In this document: in pieces, positions 25,797-46,965 of the stretch
Numbering within the stretch: the first letter of the stretch is position 1
How the letters are laid out: each line of letters begins with the position of its first letter
DNA from: a virus
Lineage: Duplodnaviria > Caudoviricetes
Strand: one strand, 5' to 3'
Virus record (IMG/VR): IMGVR_UViG_3300029955_000001
Length of the DNA stretch: 64,000 nucleotides
Notes under the pieces: generated by a model
Seen by the model: the letters and a program-made list of their open reading frames with translations, nothing else
Told to the model about the DNA's origin: nothing
The model's database searches: none
Translations under genes and position numbers: made by a program

Positions 25797-28265
25797 ATGA
25801 ATAAATTCGCACGAGTTGGATTAGTGTTGGCTATGGAAGAAGCAAAAGTTAAAAAGCCTATCGATGAAAAGAAAATTCATAAAGGTAAGTTTCATGAATG
25901 GTTAGGTAAAGATAAAGACGAACCTATCACCGATGCTGATATTGAAAAGGGTTTGGCGTCCGATGACCCTGAAGTTCGTAAGATGGCGAACTTTGCAAAG
26001 AATGCTCGTAAGTGGAAACATAAGAAAGCTAAAGTAGCTGCTGAAGCAATAGCACAAGAAGGTATCACAGGCGGAGCAGCTGTAGGCGCACTTGTTGGAT
26101 TAGTTGGTGGTGGTCCTGCTGGTATAATTCCTGGAGCTGTCATAGGCAGCATAGCAGGTTGTGTGGATGGTGGTAAGGATCGTGAGCTACAAAAAGATAT
26201 TACTAAGCCAAAGACGCATCGCGGTATTGTTAATGAGAGTGCTGTTATTGAAGGTGACTTGGCTAGCTCAGATAAGACAAGCACGCTGAATACCGAATCT
26301 TTAGGAAAAACTACACTCACTGCTACAGGTCTATCTGGTGGTCCGACTAAGGAAAAAACTTTTACAACTGAGCAACCAGATAAACCTGAAGCTAAGGAAA
26401 TTCCTGCCCCAGCTAAAGCAAAAGCTAATCCTTCTTTAGAAGAGATTACTCTGACGCTGGAAGACTTGGAAGAGTTTGAACTTGATGGCGGAAGTTATTT
26501 AGAAGAGCCAGAGGAATTAGAAGCTGGTACTTCGCCAATTAATAGCGAGACTACTCCTGCTGTTACGGATGGCAATGCTCCTGATGCTAATGGAAATGAA
26601 CCAGGTCATACCGTTACTTTCACCAATCAACAAGTGATGGCACATGGTAAGGCAACTATTACTAAATTAGTTACTGATTTAGTGAATACGCCTTTGAACC
26701 CAGATGCGCCTGTGGAAGAAGATCTAACAATCACTGGTCCTGTTGAAGATATAAATCCTTCTGAGAAGTCTGTCGCAGAATGTATGGAAGCATTAGTATC
26801 GTTAGAGTCTATTGCTAACGTTCTTCGTAAGTCTGTTCGTGAAGGTGGTGTGAACCGCGCAGGTGCTGAAATCTTAGCTATTACGACACAGGACCAGTTT
26901 TCAAAAATGGGCATCAGTACTAAAAACAGAATGCCTGCATTGGAATCATTCGATAGCTTTGGGCCGCGTATCAGTTCCACACAGATGGCTTTGGAAGGAA
27001 TCGTCTCTGGTGCAAAAGAGATTCTTGTTAAGCTATGGGAATGGATTAAGAAAGCTGTTGAATGGATTAAGGGTTTCTTTAAGAAAGCTGAAGTTCAGAA
27101 TGCGCAGACAATCGCTCGTGCAAATGAGATTAAACCATTCTTGGATAAGTTGTTTGAAATAGAACGCGATATTACCGATAAGCATTTTAATAGTGATGCG
27201 GTATTTGCCGAAGGCAGAGCAGCTGCTAATAATGGTAAGAGTGTTCGCTCTAATCCTTACATCGATGGTGGGGAATATCATCACAGTTGGCACGCTGGTA
27301 ACGATTTCGGTAAAGCTGGATCAGAAACTGTTTTCGGTAACAAGATGAAGAATGCTGCTCCTGGTTATAAGGATGCGCAACTAAACAGAGATAAACTGAA
27401 GAAACCATTATCTGAGGATGAAGTCAATAAAACAATGGACGCGACTACATCTGGCGAATCAATCTCTCATGAAGACGCTGCTGGTTTTGAAATGAATTCT
27501 GACTCTATCTCTGATCCTGGATTATTTTCTTCTTTACAAATCGGTGGTACATTACCGAACTTTGCTACTGCGTTAAGAAGCTATCACAGCATTTCTGATT
27601 CAGTTTTAAAAGACAATGACGCACCAATCAAACATGAGGCACAAACGTTGGTTGATAGTTTTGAAAAAGGTAATTTTAATAACTTGTCAGAAACATTCAA
27701 GTTACCTAGATTTACTTTTAAACCAATGCATCCTGCACACAATGATTTAGATATGTCTTTGCCAGAAGGCGTTATAAAGATTGAAACTGATCGCATGTTT
27801 GGTAACGTAGCTTTAGCTGGAATTGTTCCTACTAGTGATTTAGCAGGGGAACAGGCAATTAAAGCATTGACAGCTGCTAAAGTATTCTTGGAAAAAGATC
27901 AAGCTGAAGGTGGGCATAAAGCCACTGATTTGAAAATACTGACAAAAGAAGAATGCAGAGCAGCGTTTGATACTGTGATGCAAATTTCTTCATGTGTAAC
28001 GTCGGTACAGGATCTTGCACTGTTCTCAGAAGACTTGAAGAATAAGTTGATCAAAGCTAATCAGCGAATTATAGCCAATGGTGCCGACGATACACAGGAC
28101 GCAAATGATGAAAACAAACATAAGGAGGTCAATAGTATTGTCGCAATCAATCGCGGCATTATTAAACTATTGGATCAACCTGGTTTGTCGTATGTCGGCT
28201 ACGCTATAAAAACAAACAATGCTCTCCTCACGTATATTGAGAAGTCAATACAAGCAATGAACTAA
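25797..28265 (+). CDS. Head/inner-body protein of the phiKZ gp93/gp162-like paralog family, with propeptide
   Basis: 822 aa; repeated S/A-x-E protease-type sites (AMEE, SLEE, SLES, ALES, ALEG), acidic propeptide, then W-rich LWEWIKKAVEWIK. Confidence 0.7.
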   Translation: MNKFARVGLVLAMEEAKVKKPIDEKKIHKGKFHEWLGKDKDEPITDADIEKGLASDDPEVRKMANFAKNARKWKHKKAKVAAEAIAQEGITGGAAVGALVGLVGGGPAGIIPGAVIGSIAGCVDGGKDRELQKDITKPKTHRGIVNESAVIEGDLASSDKTSTLNTESLGKTTLTATGLSGGPTKEKTFTTEQPDKPEAKEIPAPAKAKANPSLEEITLTLEDLEEFELDGGSYLEEPEELEAGTSPINSETTPAVTDGNAPDANGNEPGHTVTFTNQQVMAHGKATITKLVTDLVNTPLNPDAPVEEDLTITGPVEDINPSEKSVAECMEALVSLESIANVLRKSVREGGVNRAGAEILAITTQDQFSKMGISTKNRMPALESFDSFGPRISSTQMALEGIVSGAKEILVKLWEWIKKAVEWIKGFFKKAEVQNAQTIARANEIKPFLDKLFEIERDITDKHFNSDAVFAEGRAAANNGKSVRSNPYIDGGEYHHSWHAGNDFGKAGSETVFGNKMKNAAPGYKDAQLNRDKLKKPLSEDEVNKTMDATTSGESISHEDAAGFEMNSDSISDPGLFSSLQIGGTLPNFATALRSYHSISDSVLKDNDAPIKHEAQTLVDSFEKGNFNNLSETFKLPRFTFKPMHPAHNDLDMSLPEGVIKIETDRMFGNVALAGIVPTSDLAGEQAIKALTAAKVFLEKDQAEGGHKATDLKILTKEECRAAFDTVMQISSCVTSVQDLALFSEDLKNKLIKANQRIIANGADDTQDANDENKHKEVNSIVAINRGIIKLLDQPGLSYVGYAIKTNNALLTYIEKSIQAMN

Positions 28266-28277
28266 AGGAAATAAGTT

Positions 28278-30683
28278 ATGGCTGGTTTTATTCCACCAGT
28301 GGGAACAAAGGGACTTTGGACGTTACTGGCACCATTCAATGCTAGTCTACTTCCAAATGTCTCTTATACCTGTATTGCTATACGAAATATATCTGACGTA
28401 ATAGCGGCAGGTGGTGACCCGCAAGCATTGTTTTATACACCAGCTGGTTTATCGGCTGATGTATACGAAGCCGATTTAGCGAGTGATGTATCTATTCTTA
28501 CATTGCAAAATCCATCAGGATTAGTTGTTTATGTACCAACAACTTATCTAACAAGTTATCCAGATGCTGGTGGAGTCCCATATAAGACAATTATTTTGGC
28601 AGTAAACTTAGGACCAGTTCCAGAGTCATTGAATTTATCCTATTTACAATCGAAAATAGCAGACAGTGTCCAGGAGATTATAGGTGTAAAACCGGCTATT
28701 ACTCCAGTAGGAGCAAGCGCTACAGTTATTATACCTAATGCCCAAGACAGTGCTATTGTTGCAGCACGAGCGGCTATCGTCGGGACTGTTACTACTGATT
28801 ATGCAAAATATCTTACTGCTCAAAATCAGTTAAATGCTGCTTTGCAAAAGATAGGTATTCTTGAGAATTACATCAAAAGAACACCGATGCTTCCACTGCC
28901 GCCATTCGTCACTATTACTGATATAGCGCCAGTCTCAGGTGGTTCTTTGTCGTTGTATAATCAAGCGATTACGCTAACAGCAGCTACAACACAAGGTAGT
29001 ATTGAAGTTATAGCCTATAGCTTAGATAATGGAAATACATGGAGTAATTTTTTAATTACACCAGCACAATCTATTACTAACACATGGCCTCTTGTTTTGC
29101 CTGTCGGTACTAGCACAATTAAGTTGAAAGCTACAGATACAAACGGTGCAGTTTCAGCTATAGAAACGATAGTAGTACTAGTTGAAGCTACTGATGTTGT
29201 TTGGATGATGAATACGACTAGCACGGGATCTACTATTACTTTATCAAATGGTCCGATAAACACAGCAATTACTTTATCGGGCACGTATGAACCAAGTAAC
29301 ACTGCTGTCAGTAATCTAGCAATAGGAACAACGGACAATAATGGTAATCTAATTACTTCTGTTGTTCCTATGACATTTAACACTGATCTTTATTTTGATT
29401 ATGTTTTAAAAGCACCAAACAACGTACTTATCAACAGCGGTATCATGACGCCGATTGGTAATGTAGCGGTCCCGCCTGCTTTACCTGCCACAGTTCCTGT
29501 GGTTACTACAGTAACATTGAATTCATCGAATACTGAATGGATAGCCCCTGCAAATATAACGATGATAACAACAGCCGTTGGTAAGGGTTCAGATGGCACT
29601 CCTACGCTTGCTGGAACGGCGTCTGTTGCGTTTGGGAACACATTCCCAGGCGGGGCTATAAACACAGCGGCTTCGTCAGTAACGTTTAGTGATATCTATG
29701 TTATCCCTGGAAACGACTATCCTGTTTCTATTCCAGTCGGAGGATCACTTGAGCTTACATACAGCACAAATGTAGGTTCGGTAATACCAACTGTTATATC
29801 GGTAGCTTTAACGTCTGCTGCAACAACATGGACACCGCCAACTGGGGTTACTAATTTATTATCCGTTAGTGGATTTGGCACTGCTGCTGTACCGGTATAT
29901 ACGGAAGAAACTACGTCATTTACGATTGCTACTCCTATTACCATTAGTACATATCCATACGGTCCTGGCATATCGACGGGTGTTCTAACAAATCCTGTTA
30001 TAGGTGATGGTGGTTCGGCGTATGTAAATAGTCCTAGTTCAAATACTACTGTTGTTACGCAGCCTACGATAGTGCAAAATCCTGGACAATTGTTTTCTTA
30101 TGCTGCTCCAGCATTAAGCGGTATAACTATAACAGGTACTGTTGCAGATGGAACGTATACCCTTTCTGGTCAGACGTCAGTAGGTGTGTTGTTAATACCT
30201 ATTATTTCTGTAACAGTAGCGGCAGGTGTTGCTACTGCTGTTACTGTTGTAGACGCAGGTTCTGCTTTATATCAAGATTCACCAGAGGTTTGTACGTGGT
30301 CGTCCGGTAGCAACGCAATTAACGTTTCTCTTACATCTAGTATAGTTACTAATTTATTACCGAATGGTTTTTGGTCAATTACAATTAGTGGTGGGTTGTT
30401 TACATGCACTACGGGTACTCCTAATGTTGCTGCAAATTGGGGCGGTGGCGCTTATGGCAATATTCACGATATATCCTCTTCTTTAGTAGGTGTAGTAACA
30501 TCTAATGTATTGACTAGTTATACACCAGGTGTAGCGGCAACTGCTATCGGAGAAAGTTTTCCAGGTGGGACAGGTGCTGTATTGCCAACGACTGTCTTTA
30601 ATAATGTTTCTGTTATTCCAGGCCAAGCTTATCCTGTTGACATACCCACTGGTGGTTCGGTTACTGTTAGGTATTTGTCCTAA
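28278..30683 (+). CDS. Virion structural protein with long beta-rich (fibre/decoration-like) extension
   Basis: 801 aa; about 200 aa N-terminal domain ending in a coiled coil, then Thr/Val/Gly-rich Ig-like regions and two FPGG...IPG..YP modules. Confidence 0.65.
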   Translation: MAGFIPPVGTKGLWTLLAPFNASLLPNVSYTCIAIRNISDVIAAGGDPQALFYTPAGLSADVYEADLASDVSILTLQNPSGLVVYVPTTYLTSYPDAGGVPYKTIILAVNLGPVPESLNLSYLQSKIADSVQEIIGVKPAITPVGASATVIIPNAQDSAIVAARAAIVGTVTTDYAKYLTAQNQLNAALQKIGILENYIKRTPMLPLPPFVTITDIAPVSGGSLSLYNQAITLTAATTQGSIEVIAYSLDNGNTWSNFLITPAQSITNTWPLVLPVGTSTIKLKATDTNGAVSAIETIVVLVEATDVVWMMNTTSTGSTITLSNGPINTAITLSGTYEPSNTAVSNLAIGTTDNNGNLITSVVPMTFNTDLYFDYVLKAPNNVLINSGIMTPIGNVAVPPALPATVPVVTTVTLNSSNTEWIAPANITMITTAVGKGSDGTPTLAGTASVAFGNTFPGGAINTAASSVTFSDIYVIPGNDYPVSIPVGGSLELTYSTNVGSVIPTVISVALTSAATTWTPPTGVTNLLSVSGFGTAAVPVYTEETTSFTIATPITISTYPYGPGISTGVLTNPVIGDGGSAYVNSPSSNTTVVTQPTIVQNPGQLFSYAAPALSGITITGTVADGTYTLSGQTSVGVLLIPIISVTVAAGVATAVTVVDAGSALYQDSPEVCTWSSGSNAINVSLTSSIVTNLLPNGFWSITISGGLFTCTTGTPNVAANWGGGAYGNIHDISSSLVGVVTSNVLTSYTPGVAATAIGESFPGGTGAVLPTTVFNNVSVIPGQAYPVDIPTGGSVTVRYLS

Positions 30684-30700: not shown

Positions 30701-31126
30701 ATGAAGAAGATACGACCAGGTTTAGTAGAGGCAATGGAGGATAATGCTGTTGCTCCAAATAACGAAATAGAAATAGAAGTTCCAGAACTAGAGAAGGACA
30801 AGAATGCTGCTATTTTATTTTCTAAAAATAAAGCATTGGAAGAAATTAAAATTTTCTCAGAAGTAAAACAGTCCTTAGAATCACTCACAGAAGACTTGTT
30901 AAAAACTGCTGCTAAAGGTGGTTTGGATAGAACCGGAAGCGAAGTATTGTATATTACCCTAGAAAACTTATATGAAAGAGCGGGAGTTAGTACAGAAGGT
31001 GTGCGACCTGCTTTAGAATCATTTAATGCGCCTGGTGTAAGAATTGGTTCTACGTTATTTGCAGCTGAACGCATAACAGAAAAGATTAAAGAGATATCAG
31101 GTAAGATTACTGATCTTCAGAAATAA
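30701..31126 (+). CDS. Short paralog of the head-protein propeptide region
   Basis: SLESLTEDLLKTAAKGGLDRTGSEVL...RPALESF aligns by eye with SLESIANVLRKSVREGGVNRAGAEIL...MPALESF of the 822 aa protein. Confidence 0.7.
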   Translation: MKKIRPGLVEAMEDNAVAPNNEIEIEVPELEKDKNAAILFSKNKALEEIKIFSEVKQSLESLTEDLLKTAAKGGLDRTGSEVLYITLENLYERAGVSTEGVRPALESFNAPGVRIGSTLFAAERITEKIKEISGKITDLQK

Positions 31127-37277: not shown

Positions 37278-38141
37278 ATGCCATCAACAACACCTGTTAC
37301 GTATCCGTTTGATCCTACAGGTACGCTCGCGTCAAACCTGATAACTGGTGAACAGCAGATTTTGAAGTTACCAACCTTCGAAAATTTTCATTTCCTAGTT
37401 CCTAACTTAGCACCTTATTTTGCGTCGACATTGCAAGTAAGTATCAAATTACTAGATGGCACAGTACAGCCACTAAACGAAGGTATTGATTATTACTGTA
37501 CAAATCTATTCAAAGCGGCATCGATGGCTTGTGAGAAGCCAATTTATGGTTCTGTTAGTTTTCTTGATCTATCCTTATCCGGTATCGTTACTTTTAACTA
37601 CCAAACAATAGGTGGCAACTGGACACTTAACCAACAACAAATTGCGCAGATTATTAGTAATGTATTGCAGAACCCGCGTGTGACTTATTGGGATCAAGTA
37701 ACAGAATATCCTGCTTTATTTCCACCACTTGCCCACGCGTTTGACTTAGTAGATTTAACAGGAGCGGCAGAGTTATACACAGCGTTAATGGCTATAGAAG
37801 CGGCTATCGCTTCTAAAACATACGATGTAACATTATTGAACCAAGCGATCAATACTGCCAATTCTGCCAATGTAATCGCCAACGAAGCAATAGTCAGAGC
37901 AGATGCTGCGTACGCTGCGTCAAACGCACTAGATCCGACTGCGGCGGCTGCTACTTTGGTTGCGTTGCAAACAGCTATTGCCACAGCAGAGGGCACGTTA
38001 CCCGTTACGTTAACAGCAACAGTCAATAACGCTCTATCAGTAGCTAACGCAGCAATGCTGGCGGTAACTGCTTTAGAAACAAACGGAACAAGTTCGAACG
38101 GTATATCTGACGATGTACTCCTTTTCATGGGGCAAAATTAA
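37278..38141 (+). CDS. Tail-fibre-associated protein (phiKZ gp131-family N-terminus)
   Basis: YPFDPTGTLASNLITGE...APYF...GIDYY...KPIYGSVSF...YQTIGG...WDQV; paralogous to the N-terminus of the 1477 aa fibre. Confidence 0.7.
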   Translation: MPSTTPVTYPFDPTGTLASNLITGEQQILKLPTFENFHFLVPNLAPYFASTLQVSIKLLDGTVQPLNEGIDYYCTNLFKAASMACEKPIYGSVSFLDLSLSGIVTFNYQTIGGNWTLNQQQIAQIISNVLQNPRVTYWDQVTEYPALFPPLAHAFDLVDLTGAAELYTALMAIEAAIASKTYDVTLLNQAINTANSANVIANEAIVRADAAYAASNALDPTAAAATLVALQTAIATAEGTLPVTLTATVNNALSVANAAMLAVTALETNGTSSNGISDDVLLFMGQN

Positions 38142-40275: not shown

Positions 40276-43200
40276 ATGTCAACACCACTTGTTCTTAAAT
40301 ATCCAATTGATCCGACTGGAACTAATCCTGCTAATTTAGTACAGGGTGAAGTTCAGACGTTGATCCCAAGACCAATACGTGCGGCAGCAACAGATTACGG
40401 TGCATTTTATTCTGCTTCCTTGATTGTTACCGACACAGCAAACAATACTATTTTAACTTCTGCTCAGTATTACCCAGCAGAAATGTACAAAATTCCAACG
40501 GAGATGTACGGTAAGGAAGTATGTGCAATTATCATTATCACTGATCCAACAGTTAGTAATTCAATATCGTTACAATACCAAGCAGTTGGGGGCATTTTTA
40601 GCACAAGTACTGAAGCTATAGTGCAGATGTTAAATGCAGCTCAATTAGATAACAGACCAATTACTTGGCCTAACATTGAACAGAAACCAACTGAATTTGT
40701 TCCTACTCTGCACACACACAGCACAGATGATTTCTATGGAATGGAATATGTCACGTTTGCACTGGAGCGTGTACGGCAAGCTATTTTACAAGGTGATGAT
40801 GTATCACATGATCAAATTTATGCGTATATTGATAAGAACATCGCTGCTGTATCAGCTGCTCAAGTATCCGCTATTAACGCAGCAATGGCTTTGCATTTAG
40901 CAGCAGCTAATCCGCATCCGCAGTATGTATTGATCGCTGATGAAAATATATATCCTCTTGTAAGAACGCCTACGAATGAAGTCCCTGTCAGTGGGGCGAT
41001 TGGTGTTAACCCCGAGCTAACGTTGACGGGTAATGAATACTATTCGTTATACGGAGTGTCCCAAGGCGCGTCTGAGTTTCGTTTATCGGTTAATGCTGGA
41101 TGTGTTTCTCCTTTTATCTTTGACGCTGTATTAGGGGCTGTAAACACTTATAATTATTCAGGGGTTCTTTCTTCTGAAACTGTTTATTACTGGCAAGTTC
41201 GGTATCAAGATTCAGAAGGCGTGTGGTCTGCTTGGTCTACTGTTACATCGTTTACAAGTGCTGTTATTGGTGTAAATACACCAATAATTAATTCTATAAC
41301 AAATGGTGCGGTAGGTGTAAGCTTAACACCTATTTTAACAAATAGTGCTTTCTCATCAACTGGCATTGTCGATACTCAGACTTCGAGTGTTTTCCAAATA
41401 TGGACTAACAATTCAGCAATCGGTGTTCCTGTTTGGTCTGATACAGTGAACAGTGGTAATTTAAATTCTGTTAGTGTGTCTGGCGGGACGTTGCAAATAA
41501 CAACCACTTATTACGCTAGATCACAACAAGTGGGGGCGTTGCTAGGTGCGTCTAATTGGTCGTCGTGGGTAGCTTTTACAACGGCTTCTACGGGAATTAC
41601 AACGCCGTCGATAATAACCCCCGCAAATGACGCGATAGATGTGTCTATCACGCCAACTATCACAGCTTCGGCCTTTACCCCTTTTGGTGGAACGGATACG
41701 CAAGCTTCGACTAATTGGGAAATATGGACATTGGGAAGTACGTTAACTCCTGTGGTTCGAACGTTTACAGCAAGTGGTACGTTTACGCCACCTAGTGACG
41801 TTATGTCCGTGACTAGTGTTTCTGGATATGGCGCGGCAGCTGTAGCAAATACAACAACACCGGTTACCTATACGTCAGGGGCTGCTTCTACTGCATTTGG
41901 TTTCGCATTCCCAGGCGGTGTAAATGCTACTGCTCCTGTTACTACAACAGAAAATACAGTCGCTGTTATTCCTGGCTATTCGTATCCTATTATAGTGCCA
42001 ACTGGTGGTATTGTTACAATAAACTATTCTACTATTGTTCCTGCGTTAGTATGGTCATCTGAAAATAATACAACTAACCATACATCGATTACACTGCCGG
42101 TAAATAGTATTGTTGCCGATACATTATATCAGATTCGTGTTCAATATACTGGTGTGCTGCACGGTTCATCTGCGTGGTCTGCATGGAGTTATTTTACTGC
42201 TGGTTCACAGGGTGTAAACACTCCGTCTATTACATCGCCAGTTATTGATTCGACAGGTGTGTCTACATCGCCTACATTATTGGCTAGTGCGTTTTCTGTA
42301 TTTGGCGGAGCTGACACGCAAGCATCAGCTAGTTGGGAAATATGGACTGCTGGCACCGCTGTACCGCATACGCAAGCATTTACTGCGAATGGTACTTGGA
42401 CAGCTCCTACTGGTGTGTCTAATTTAACTAGTATTGTTGGCCATGGCGCAGCATCTACGCCAATTAGCGGTATTATTGGTTATGGCCCGTCTTACTATCA
42501 GATAGGCTATAATAGTCTTATTGGTGGTTACAACTATACTTCTACACCAACTATTACACAAACTAGTGGCAGCATTCAAAGCGGCGCTGGTGGTGGAGTT
42601 ACTATACTCCCATTATATTCATATACTTCACCAATCGCGGTTGTGCACGGAACAGTGCCGGATGGAACTTACACCGCGATTGGGACTAACATTAGTGCCA
42701 ATGACGTAACTTCGCCAGTAATGACCGCCGTTGTATCTGGAAATATCGTTACATCAGTAACAGTAACGCCTGGGCTTACAATAGAGGGATCTCAAGAAGA
42801 TGCATTTGCACTGTGGAATATAACTTTTGACATAGGTAATTACTTACAGGGGTTCGCAAGCGCTAATGTAAATACTGGAACTTATTACGCAACTGCAACA
42901 ATTGCTCAAGGCGTAGCAAACAGCGCAACAGCTATTACGTATCAGGTATCTGGGGGCGGAGGCAGTACATTTACGATTAGTTCTACACCTGTACTTACAG
43001 CTGGAAATGCTGAATACGGCACTGTTGGCTATACCGCTGGCGCCAACGCTACTGCTGTCGGTAATACATTTCTTGGTGCCACCGGTTCTGCTGCCCCGGT
43101 TGTCGTTACAGATACAAACGTTGCTGTTGTTCCCGGAACAAGTTATCCTATTGTTGTTCCTACTGGCGCTAGTGTAACAATCAATTGGAGTACAGGTACT

Positions 43201-44709
43201 GCTGGCGCATTAGCATGGTCGGCTGAAGGCGATACGGCTGATAAGACATCTATAACTGTTCCTTCTGGGACATTAAGTAGTTTGTCATCTTACGTAGCTC
43301 GTGTTAAATACACTGGCAATATGTACGGTACTTCAGCATGGTCCACTTGGGATGGGTTTACTACAGGTAACGAAGGTGTTAATACACCTACTATTATATC
43401 GCCAGCAAATAGTTCATCTGTTTCAACGTCAACGTTAACATTGACAGGAAGTACATTTTCTGCATACGGAACAACAGACACACACGCTTCAACTAATTGG
43501 GAGCTATGGTCTGTAGCTACAACACCTGTGTTATTATGGTCATATGAACTTGACACTGTTAATCTAACGTCAATTACAGTACCTAGTAGTTACTTAACTG
43601 ACGGTGTATCGTATCAAGCTCGTATACAGTACACTGGTGCTGCAGCTGGTTCTTCTGAATGGTCTGCGTGGGATGTGTTCACAATGGCTTGGCCTGTCGG
43701 TCCTACAGTTATAGGTGAATCATGGGGTGGCGGTTACTTCATGGGGAATGTTACTGTTGGCGCAGCAAATATGGCAATCATCCTAGCACCAAAAACATCT
43801 GGTGAACATTCTGGAGAAATACTATATACGTCAAATGGTCCTTCGCCATCTGGGGCTTATTCTACTACTGATTCGGTGGCAGATACAGCTGCATGGGCGT
43901 CATTAGGCGCTGGTTCTCCTGCTGCTATATTTGTAAGTGCTTTAACAATTGGCGGGTATAGTGATTGGCAAATACCGTCATCGGCGGTATGGGACCTAGT
44001 TACGGCAAATGCGAATCCAACTACAACTACGTCTGCATTGTATATTACCGGCGGACAAGAAGTAATTGAAAATGCGTGGTATTGGTCTTCGACAGCATAC
44101 GACGACATTAGTACAAACTCTGTTTATGTTAATGCTGTACCTGCTGTAGCAGCACACACGATACCAGCTACTGCTGCTATACCGTCTTACACCACAGGGG
44201 CTGCACCAAGTTATACCATACCAGCGGTTCCTTCAACGCCATCGTCACCAGGCACCCCGATATACCAAACCATATCTGGCGGCACTGGTTTCTTTAGCAT
44301 GTCAGAGACTGGAAACACTTTACCTAGTAATTACGGCCAATGCCCAGCAGGGCAAGCTTTGCTCAGTGAATATGACCAAACATCCACAGATCATGGATGG
44401 GTGTGGTCTTGTCAGATTCAAGATAGGGTTATTACCGGCTATGTTCCAGGAACTGCTGTAGCGCAAATACCAGCAGTTCCGGCTGTATTTGTACCTGCTG
44501 TTCCAGGGACTGTGCATCCTGCTGTACCGGCACAGCCTGCTCAATATATCGCCGCAACACCAGCTGTACCTGGTCATTGGGATACGTCAACTTATACAAC
44601 GTACGACGCCTATGCGTTTAACTATAGTAACTCTACTATGCAGTTACCAAAGCCAACGAACACGGCGTTATACGTGAGAGCAGTTAGGTTAGTTCCTGTT
44701 GGATCGTAA
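40276..44709 (+). CDS. Long tail fibre: gp131-like anchor, FN3-like repeats, C-terminal Lcl/DUF1566-like domain
   Basis: 1477 aa; N-terminal YPIDPTGTNPANLV; about 5 repeats TP-x-I-x-x-P...WEIW...Y-x-x-R-x-x-YTG...WS-x-W-x-x-FT; C-terminal GGYSDWQIPS...WYWSST...YVRAVR. Confidence 0.8.
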   Translation: MSTPLVLKYPIDPTGTNPANLVQGEVQTLIPRPIRAAATDYGAFYSASLIVTDTANNTILTSAQYYPAEMYKIPTEMYGKEVCAIIIITDPTVSNSISLQYQAVGGIFSTSTEAIVQMLNAAQLDNRPITWPNIEQKPTEFVPTLHTHSTDDFYGMEYVTFALERVRQAILQGDDVSHDQIYAYIDKNIAAVSAAQVSAINAAMALHLAAANPHPQYVLIADENIYPLVRTPTNEVPVSGAIGVNPELTLTGNEYYSLYGVSQGASEFRLSVNAGCVSPFIFDAVLGAVNTYNYSGVLSSETVYYWQVRYQDSEGVWSAWSTVTSFTSAVIGVNTPIINSITNGAVGVSLTPILTNSAFSSTGIVDTQTSSVFQIWTNNSAIGVPVWSDTVNSGNLNSVSVSGGTLQITTTYYARSQQVGALLGASNWSSWVAFTTASTGITTPSIITPANDAIDVSITPTITASAFTPFGGTDTQASTNWEIWTLGSTLTPVVRTFTASGTFTPPSDVMSVTSVSGYGAAAVANTTTPVTYTSGAASTAFGFAFPGGVNATAPVTTTENTVAVIPGYSYPIIVPTGGIVTINYSTIVPALVWSSENNTTNHTSITLPVNSIVADTLYQIRVQYTGVLHGSSAWSAWSYFTAGSQGVNTPSITSPVIDSTGVSTSPTLLASAFSVFGGADTQASASWEIWTAGTAVPHTQAFTANGTWTAPTGVSNLTSIVGHGAASTPISGIIGYGPSYYQIGYNSLIGGYNYTSTPTITQTSGSIQSGAGGGVTILPLYSYTSPIAVVHGTVPDGTYTAIGTNISANDVTSPVMTAVVSGNIVTSVTVTPGLTIEGSQEDAFALWNITFDIGNYLQGFASANVNTGTYYATATIAQGVANSATAITYQVSGGGGSTFTISSTPVLTAGNAEYGTVGYTAGANATAVGNTFLGATGSAAPVVVTDTNVAVVPGTSYPIVVPTGASVTINWSTGTAGALAWSAEGDTADKTSITVPSGTLSSLSSYVARVKYTGNMYGTSAWSTWDGFTTGNEGVNTPTIISPANSSSVSTSTLTLTGSTFSAYGTTDTHASTNWELWSVATTPVLLWSYELDTVNLTSITVPSSYLTDGVSYQARIQYTGAAAGSSEWSAWDVFTMAWPVGPTVIGESWGGGYFMGNVTVGAANMAIILAPKTSGEHSGEILYTSNGPSPSGAYSTTDSVADTAAWASLGAGSPAAIFVSALTIGGYSDWQIPSSAVWDLVTANANPTTTTSALYITGGQEVIENAWYWSSTAYDDISTNSVYVNAVPAVAAHTIPATAAIPSYTTGAAPSYTIPAVPSTPSSPGTPIYQTISGGTGFFSMSETGNTLPSNYGQCPAGQALLSEYDQTSTDHGWVWSCQIQDRVITGYVPGTAVAQIPAVPAVFVPAVPGTVHPAVPAQPAQYIAATPAVPGHWDTSTYTTYDAYAFNYSNSTMQLPKPTNTALYVRAVRLVPVGS

Positions 44710-45864: not shown

Positions 45865-45965
45865 AATATTAATTTTTTTATATATCACACATGAATAGTG
45901 TGCGATGCAAATCACTTATTTTAGTGGTTTATTATTTTCTCAACAACTTACTAAGGATGTTAAAA

Positions 45966-46256
45966 ATGACTACACCTTTTCCGATTAAACGAAATGTTCT
46001 GCGTATGATTCATTGGTTGATTATAGCAGCATTGTTTTATTTTGTTGCTTATTGCTTATCAATCGACGAAGAGCTTCGTCAGCTTTCTACAATCTCTTGG
46101 AAACTCGGCAATGTAACTGTAGGCGGTTATGTGGGCTATTGGCTAGATAGGCATTTGTTCCAAACAAGGATAGATGACACTAGCCCGCCACTGTTACAGA
46201 TCAGGAGAGCCGTGATTGTGGCAGCTAGTATCTTTGCTGTATCGACAGGATTGTAA
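45966..46256 (+). CDS. Putative 2/3-transmembrane holin
   Basis: WKLGNVTVGGYVGYWLDRHLF and RRAVIVAASIFAVSTGL match the Holin_2-3 family signature; precedes the endolysin by 1 nt. Likely start ATG at 45966. Confidence 0.8.
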   Translation: MTTPFPIKRNVLRMIHWLIIAALFYFVAYCLSIDEELRQLSTISWKLGNVTVGGYVGYWLDRHLFQTRIDDTSPPLLQIRRAVIVAASIFAVSTGL

Positions 46257-46257
46257 A

Positions 46258-46965
46258 ATGAAACGCATCCTCTTATGTTTAGATAAGTGGGCGACTATTA
46301 TTTACGGGATTTTAATAGCTATTGTTTTATTGTTCGTTGTTGCGAATAGCGTATCTGCTGCTATCATCAATACACATAAACCAATAGTTAAACAATCAGT
46401 CCCACGGACCCCTGTAATTATGCTGCAATATAGAGCTGCGTTAACAAGAGAAGCACAGTTTGTTTACGGCATAAACGCACCTATCCCTATGTTCGCTGGT
46501 CAGATATGGCAAGAGTCCGGCGGTAAAGCAAATGCAAAGGCATGGGATTTAGGAATGGGGTTAGGACAATTCGAACCGGGCACAGCAAAAGAAATAGTGA
46601 AGTTGTATCCTGAATTAGGACCATCTGACCCTTTCAATCCTGTATGGTCAATACGGGCTTTGGTAAGATATGATGATTGGATATACAAGCGCGTTAAAGG
46701 CGTTAATGCATGTGAGGTGTGGGGTGGTAGCTTAGATGGCTACAACGCAGGTCTGGGGTATGTTCAGAAAGCTCAGAGAGCATCTCCTGATCCTACTGTC
46801 TGGTTTACTAAGACCGAATATGTGCCTACAGGCCAAACAGCCAAGAATAAAGAATACAGTCGTGTCTACCCACGAATTATTCTTTTTAAACACCAAGCTA
46901 TGTTTTCTACTTGGGGAGCATTAACGTGTTTACCGTATGTTCCAGTTGGTAAAAATTCTTTTTAA
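46258..46965 (+). CDS. SLT-type lytic transglycosylase (endolysin) with N-terminal TM segment
   Basis: QIWQESGG (catalytic Glu), GLGQFEPGTA, GYNAGLG; hydrophobic N-terminus could be a signal-anchor (SAR-like). Confidence 0.85.
   Translation: MKRILLCLDKWATIIYGILIAIVLLFVVANSVSAAIINTHKPIVKQSVPRTPVIMLQYRAALTREAQFVYGINAPIPMFAGQIWQESGGKANAKAWDLGMGLGQFEPGTAKEIVKLYPELGPSDPFNPVWSIRALVRYDDWIYKRVKGVNACEVWGGSLDGYNAGLGYVQKAQRASPDPTVWFTKTEYVPTGQTAKNKEYSRVYPRIILFKHQAMFSTWGALTCLPYVPVGKNSF

Follow-up and report, generated by a model that had tools for sequence, protein, structure and literature searches.

Interrupted repeats in a fibre-like phage protein

The stretch analysed here, a window of 64,000 nucleotides from the IMG/VR virus record IMGVR_UViG_3300029955_000001, comes from an uncultured jumbo (giant) phage, the record of which spans 165,072 bp at 37.6% GC with a completeness of 58% (CheckV). 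We examined P0001, a fibre-like virion protein of 1477 amino acids (aa) that consists of an N-terminal virion-anchor domain, five FN3-like repeats, and a lectin-like tip. An identical 1477-aa protein was recovered from several samples, on 9 independent contigs of up to 287,693 bp; therefore, P0001 is not an assembly chimera. No allelic variants were found at ≥90% identity, megablast of the gene for relatives in cultured phages gave no match, and a whole-protein search for related loci returned no relatives. DNA tandem repeats of note were also not found within the 40276-44709 gene. The gene and the parts of its product are as follows.

40276..44709, + strand: gene of the fibre-like virion protein P0001, 1477 aa (open reading frame list and translation)
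40276..40938, + strand: N-terminal anchor domain, aa 1-221 (phrog_2163, E 8.4e-61; tblastn)
40939..41586, + strand: repeats 1 and 2, intact FN3-like, aa 222-437 (MAFFT, PF25788)
41587..41742, + strand: repeat 3, predicted N half of FN3 (strands A to C), aa 438-489 (AlphaFold2 [AF2] model)
41743..42036, + strand: module M3, predicted compact all-beta, nested in the C-C' loop of repeat 3, aa 490-587 (AF2, phmmer)
42037..42204, + strand: repeat 3, predicted C half of FN3 (strands C' to G), aa 588-643 (AF2, structure searches)
42205..42360, + strand: repeat 4, predicted N half of FN3, aa 644-695 (AF2)
42361..42474, + strand: module M4, N element (FTANGTWTAP...GHGAAS), aa 696-733 (predicted local distance difference test score [pLDDT] 87-95; aligns with the family N element)
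42475..43017, + strand: third-level insert INS at the M4 variable site, aa 734-914, orphan (pLDDT 33-53)
43018..43197, + strand: module M4, C element (...FLGATG...VVPGTSYPIVVPTGASVTINWST), aa 915-974 (pLDDT 85-98; 58% identical to the M3 C element)
43198..43368, + strand: repeat 4, predicted C half of FN3, aa 975-1031 (AF2)
43369..43689, + strand: repeat 5, intact FN3-like, aa 1032-1138 (MAFFT)
43690..44709, + strand: Lcl_C/DUF1566-like tip, aa 1139-1477 (PF07603 sub-threshold; phrog_4245, E 1.2e-14)

The five repeat segments (aa 222-329, 330-437, 438-643, 644-1031, and 1032-1138) were aligned with MAFFT and proved to be one FN3-like repeat of ~107 aa, with the surplus length of repeats 3 and 4 falling entirely into a single gap after W-E-I-W-T and before L-x-W-S. 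This result confirmed a preliminary description of the window, made from its letters alone, according to which some repeats carry an extra module at a fixed point of their motif; the coordinates that it gave for the modules were likewise accurate, 41761-42032 corresponding to aa 496-586 and 42376-43195 to aa 701-974. Furthermore, PF25788 (Ig_Rha78A_N) matched three stretches of P0001 with 51.3 bits against a cut-off of 27.4, which places the protein in this family. Repeat and module similarities were then determined by tblastn against the 165-kb genome. Intact repeat 5 matched repeats 3 and 4 in two pieces each, one for the N half and one for the C half (49-54% identity, E 1e-13 to 3e-9), and the inserts of repeats 3 and 4 matched each other both in their C elements (58% identity over 57 aa, E 9e-14) and in their N elements (48% over 31 aa, E 8.5e-5). 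Both kinds of similarity are far above chance.

Repeats 3 and 4 were folded separately by AF2 from alignments that combined intact FN3 repeats with module-family sequences and that were checked column by column. The model of repeat 3 had a mean pLDDT of 96.3 and a predicted template modelling score of 0.72, and its strands were ordered A, A', B, and C (C at residues 39-48), approximately ten module strands (residues 53-150), C' (residues 153-161), E, F, and G; within it, M3 was modelled at pLDDT 94-98. A seven-strand FN3 sandwich, looked for as one contiguous or closed domain, was thus present in the model. Solved FN3 chains aligned over model residues 1..206, and the Foldseek matches and the ESM Atlas agreed on FN3 (root-mean-square deviation 1.3-2.6 over 95-115 residues). 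At the first level of nesting, the two parent halves folded together in both repeats; at the second level, the N and C elements of M4 were confidently placed together (pLDDT 85-98) around an insert of pLDDT 33-53. In the models of repeats 3 and 4, the two flanks of each insert join up into one closed FN3 domain. Flanks that fail to close had been named beforehand as the sign of a simple linear domain string, and the structure prediction returned closed domains in both repeats. The insertion point in the models is the C-C' hairpin of FN3. In the FN3 topology this hairpin lies at the pole adjoining the next domain, and because of this position it is reasonable to expect that the modules project off the stalk axis.

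A module family with a variable site

The module itself had no match in Pfam or PHROGs. With aa 490-592 as the query, phmmer run exhaustively over 1.84 billion representatives retrieved 79 proteins at E<1e-3, which form an unannotated family of ~75 clusters bearing no Pfam or PHROG name. Nearly all of these relatives were small (100-268 aa) and carried the module at the very C terminus: in the stand-alone proteins, a short leader was followed by an N element (FTxNxTWxAP...SGxGAxG), a variable middle, and a C element (TTGASATAFGxTFPGG...VTPGxSYxIVVPxGGSITITYYQ) that ends the protein. Family members were recognized by the paired signature of FTxxGTWxAP...SGxGAxG in the N element and FGxTFPGG...V(T/I)PGxxYxxxxPxGGxxTIxY in the C element. 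A second, independent scan of IMG/VR yielded 40 loci with open reading frames of 174-414 aa, and in all 40 the match stopped 0-7 residues before the stop codon. Where gene contexts were inspected, the stand-alone module gene followed a gene with tail-fibre-like N-terminal similarity in four of four cases, and a lysozyme, holin, or endolysin gene lay within ~1 kb after it in three of the four. Larger members also occurred. In P0094 (1093 aa; L006:4101-7382), a pair of FN3-like repeats is followed by a linear tandem of at least three compact modules and then by FG-GAP repeats; in P0093 (546 aa), the N and C elements of the module stand ~450 aa apart, the sequence between them being glycine-rich. 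No match was detected when M3 and the protein P0016 were compared by tblastn with 50,697 cultured-phage records.

The same module was found without any FN3 domain elsewhere in the window, in the virion protein P0014.

28278-30683, + strand: P0014, 801-aa virion protein with N-terminal DUF7194 (PF23824, E 3.8e-53; phrog_3241)
29505..30680, + strand: un-nested module pair at the P0014 C terminus (Ma, aa 410-505, compact; Mb, aa 506-801)

Mb follows Ma directly and carries a 213-aa insert. The pair type nested in P0001, one compact and one insert-bearing module, thus recurs un-nested in this unlinked virion protein. The four modules M3, M4, Ma, and Mb were 38-59% identical to one another and have (near-)invariant glycines, proline, and tyrosine in common. 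The un-nested P0014 pair indicates that the module folds independently of the FN3 frame, as an autonomous unit. The P0014 gene is flanked by two genes, 25797-28265 (+ strand, 822 aa) and 30701-31126 (+ strand, 141 aa), whose products match internal-head-protein PHROGs (phrog_2497 and phrog_6807).

Across 77 aligned family sequences, the spacing between the N and C elements ranged from 5 to 213 aa. It was 5-12 aa in only four of them (M3, Ma, P0070, and P0077), 72-94 aa in 50, and 115-140 aa in 20, with the longest spacings in P0092 (168 aa), M4 (194 aa), and Mb (213 aa). In this alignment most members, 73 of the 77, carry an insert of 72-213 aa at the variable site, and compact modules are exceptional. 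The "further ~190 aa insert" of the preliminary description is therefore present in repeat 4, but not as a special event: because inserts are the norm, it is the variable site built into the module itself, which in this copy is unusually long. The common ~80-aa insert class of the stand-alone members shows a conserved P..YC ... CY pair, and from this pair the variable site of this class may hold a subdomain stapled by a disulfide.

The insert of M4, INS (aa 734-914, ~180 aa), had one relative, a 54-aa core within the insert of the second P0014 module (37% identity, E 2e-4). Beyond this, no INS relatives were found in Pfam, PHROGs, or PDB sequences, where phmmer returned only chance matches to PDB entries, nor in a word-indexed database among proteins of 106-340 aa; in an Atlas feature search, all matches scored <0.9 and bore no names. 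The third level is real as a sequence topology, with INS lying between the two elements of M4, and putative as a folded domain. For the module as a whole, the family profile matched PDB sequences with nothing better than E 1.3, including neither gp24 nor ALK, and structure searches (VIA, Foldseek PDB, BFVD, and Atlas) returned only FN3 matches or insignificant rows.

The C-C' loop as an insertion site and its known counterparts

The closest homologue of P0001, P0004 (1334 aa; L003:2085-6089) from a related metagenomic phage, is also its positional orthologue: the P0004 locus is ordered [520 aa][149 aa][fibre][137 aa][157 aa][holin][SLT lysin], and that of P0001 [547][141][fibre][141][207][holin][lysin]. 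P0004 contains four FN3-like repeats (PF25788, 54.8 bits). The third is intact and is the nearest relative of both repeat 3 (60% identity) and repeat 4 (58%) of P0001; the fourth, nearest to the intact P0001 repeat 5 (50%), is split, likewise in the C-C' loop, by a domain of ~170 aa that is Lcl_C/DUF1566-like and resembles the P0001 tip. This repeat is followed by another domain of the Lcl_C type and, at the C terminus, by a domain of Gp38 adhesins (PF05268, E 2.3e-11). Among ~72 FN3-like repeats in 13 proteins, three were interrupted, all at the C-C' loop, and because all three interruptions share this one loop, a permissive, re-used insertion site is supported. The insertion hotspot proposed in the preliminary description thus held in part, in that the loop recurs as an insertion site in P0004 with a different domain and received all three inserts seen among the ~72 repeats. 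Repeats 3 and 4 share 53% identity with each other against 60% and 58% with the third FN3 of P0004, values that fit two insertions as well as one insertion followed by duplication.

The arrangement has counterparts in other systems. RTX adhesins use Ig-like "split domains" to hold ligand-binding domains, the two termini of which are adjacent, off the fibre axis (PMC12077191); examples are Aeromonas hydrophila AhLap, Vibrio cholerae FrhA, and Marinomonas MpIBP (PMC12077191, PMC10865825), and a three-level case, in which a beta-roll holds a vWFA domain that holds a further insert, has also been described (PMC12077191). As in P0001, a beta-sandwich stalk domain is interrupted by a budding domain whose N and C ends are adjacent. 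RTX adhesins, however, are bacterial and type-I-secreted and have calcium-stiffened extender domains, whereas P0001 is a phage virion fibre in which a PF25788-type FN3 is split at the C-C' loop and the cargo is an unnamed phage module with a putative binding role. P0001 is best regarded as the split-domain principle at work in a phage, where one particular FN3 loop receives the insertion and the inserted cargo comes from an unannotated module family. The split-domain device of bacterial fibrillar adhesins is thereby also used by a phage fibre, and the insertion is pinned to one FN3 loop, which a related phage uses for different cargo.

Among phage proteins, carbohydrate-binding modules are inserted in "evolved Dit" and other siphophage tail proteins (PMC6669499). 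Like P0001, evolved Dit gains a host-binding module by in-frame loop insertion into a structural domain, but in that case a BppA-type carbohydrate-binding module sits in the Dit galectin-like arm, and the hosts are Gram positive; second-level nesting is not described for these insertions (PMC6669499). A structure search also aligned 93 residues of the IGF1R chain 6vwj_B, across chain residues 580-796, to our model (rank 37). The second FnIII domain of the insulin and IGF-1 receptors has an insert domain in its C-C' loop. That insert differs from the present modules in being largely disordered and carrying a cleavage site rather than forming an autonomous folded module, and it belongs to unrelated biology.

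A last comparison concerns Pam3 gp24 and S16 gp38, in which the receptor-binding unit of tail fibres is TNF-like and glycine-rich (PMC9608196). Tips of the gp24 type resemble the module in having small beta cores whose strands are broken by a variable, sometimes glycine-rich distal part, and the modules differ from them in having no glycine-rich lattices. PF21722 (Gly_rich_2) was the only Pfam family matched by more than one module-family member (3/77; best E 0.0016, sub-threshold), and a language-model search placed P0070 near a PF21722 cluster with a score of 0.86; in addition, the variable site of P0093 is occupied by its glycine-rich stretch. Against the cut-offs of PF21722 and PF12810 (ALK_LTK_GRD), 24.3 and 24.5 bits, M3 and M4 gave no match even at E≤10, and no match was found genome-wide. 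We did not file the module under PF21722 or the glycine-rich family, as all matches fell below threshold and the P0001 copies had none. In the structure searches, FN3 matches filled the lists, and the Foldseek PDB top 50 contained no TNF or ALK entry. A tie of the module to the glycine-rich or TNF-like tips is at best a weak lead.

Proposed function and the surroundings of the gene

From the observed architecture, module family, recurrent insertion site, and un-nested paralogues, we propose, with a probability of roughly 0.7, that P0001 is a fibre-like protein in which two split FN3 beads hold modules that act as extra host-binding units, in a C-C' loop open to cargo exchange. The chain leaves the FN3 fold after strand C, builds the ~98-aa all-beta module, the two ends of which lie side by side, and re-enters at strand C'; two consecutive beads are split domains of this kind. 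Repeat 4 has three levels, FN3 holding the module and the module holding the ~180-aa orphan insert. The modules belong to the unnamed family of small proteins that end phage tail-fibre loci and would bind the host surface, probably its glycans; held out near the bead-bead junctions, they would offer lateral binding sites besides the tip, and the C-C' loop may serve as a permissive site for cargo exchange between related phages. The host-binding role is inferred because the module sits terminally in virion proteins and is encoded in tail-fibre loci, because it has a fixed hypervariable site, because the orthologue P0004 holds a lectin-like domain in the same loop, and because RTX-adhesin split domains project ligand binders (PMC12077191).

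Several points weigh against this proposal. The FN3 closure is partly homology-guided, because 12 intact FN3 rows were included in the AF2 alignments. INS could be partly disordered, with aa 740-911 at pLDDT 33-53 in the repeat-4 model. The module is unlinked to any known lectin or receptor-binding fold, the best Foldseek PDB match having E 0.011 and FN3 matches filling the lists. Finally, FN3 strings are usually monomeric and classical tail fibres are trimers. A three-copy homotrimer run of M3, which scored 0.29 beside a mark of 0.42, speaks neither for nor against a trimer.

One alternative accepts the nest and makes the modules structural, as elements that stiffen the bead junctions, link fibre to fibre or fibre to baseplate, or serve as nodes of oligomerisation or assembly. 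That no known binding fold or site was found for the module agrees with this view, as does the predominance of glycines and prolines among its conserved residues, which suggests a scaffold; so do the position of the C-C' loop at the pole beside the following domain, expected from the topology of FN3 domains in general and from the order of strands in the model, and the location of the stand-alone members where tail-fibre assembly proteins are often encoded. We consider a purely structural role unlikely, however, since a hypervariable insert at a fixed site together with C-terminal placement is typical of receptor-binding tips, the same loop of P0004 holds a lectin-like domain, and the RTX-adhesin precedent points to ligand binders. 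It is also very improbable that no nesting exists and that half-domains and modules simply follow one another along the chain, or that the region is a product of mis-assembly: repeats 3 and 4 closed with high confidence, each half matched just half of the FN3 profile, and the identical protein came from 9 contigs of several samples.

A further alternative concerns the third level only, namely that the ~180-aa stretch in M4 is a flexible or degenerate spacer and that just two levels are real. The low pLDDT over aa 740-911 would fit a spacer, but low values are expected where, as over INS, the alignment has no depth. Likewise, INS is rich in Thr, Ser, and Gly and without relatives in Pfam, PHROGs, PDB, or the word-indexed database, yet its 54-aa core is shared with the paralogous P0014 insert (37%, E 2e-4), its sequence shows a beta-strand-like alternation of hydrophobic and polar residues with two strands predicted at aa 815-831, and most family members carry at the same site a conserved ~80-aa insert with the Y-C...C-Y pair. 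Taking these points together, we judge a mere spacer rather unlikely.

If the proposal of split FN3 beads with host-binding modules is taken further, the ~98-aa module might be the core of a portable class of phage adhesins, possibly a stripped-down relative of the TNF-like/glycine-rich tips, with the C-C' loop as a general site of cassette swapping; this extension is tentative and falls well short of an even chance. If true, the module could work as a free-standing protein, in tandem arrays, as the end of a chain, or as a graft within a stalk domain, and jumbo-phage fibres could gain lateral receptor-binding sites and shift their host range via the C-C' loop. The newly defined unannotated family (~75 clusters plus 40 IMG/VR loci) at tail-fibre loci supplies natural candidates for receptor-binding units. 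Should binding be confirmed, the variable site of the module and the FN3 loop would be two positions at which fibre specificity could be read or engineered in laboratory phage-host pairs.

P0001 is a probable fibre-like virion protein, the label "tail fibre" coming from the homology of its N-terminal domain and from synteny. The indirect pointers to a tail fibre are the phrog_2163 N terminus, the annotations of relatives, the Gp38 domain of the orthologue, and the position upstream of holin and endolysin genes. The anchor domain (aa 1-221) matches phrog_2163, "virion structural protein", and is common to jumbo-phage virion and fibre proteins: tblastn detected it in 195 phage records, with every match lying in aa 1-187. 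Among the matches listed, all were jumbo phages of 218-322 kb (Burkholderia FLC9, Ralstonia RP12, Serratia 2050HW, and others), and the GenBank labels on these relatives in cultured jumbo phages were virion structural protein, YomR, and short tail fiber protein. The same domain occurs in a second product of the window, which also has weaker matches to tail and tail-fibre PHROGs; the shared anchor suggests that several fibres dock via one common domain. The neighbouring features concerned are the following.

37278-38141, + strand: 287-aa paralogue with the anchor domain (phrog_2163, E 2.8e-46)
45891-46965, + strand: holin (phrog_1528) and endolysin (phrog_669), 1.2 kb downstream of the fibre gene

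At the other end of P0001, the tip matched PF07603 (Lcl_C / DUF1566) with 22.5 bits (E 1.5e-4), below the 34.9-bit cut-off, and so falls outside formal membership. Its motif order, GGxxxG...DWxxPS...YWSST...VRAVR, is the same as in the compact P0004 copy, and for this reason the tip is probably a divergent, insert-interrupted member of the Lcl_C / DUF1566 family. In P0001, ~150-170 aa separate YWSST from the final YVRAVRLVP, where the compact P0004 copy has ~40 aa, and the extra stretch consists of Pro/Ala/Val-rich runs around a small two-Cys core. The tip is apparently itself interrupted, which would make it a further nested insertion within the same protein. As for the genes beyond the tip, the order of fibre, holin, and endolysin recurs beside P0004 and beside several of the stand-alone module genes.

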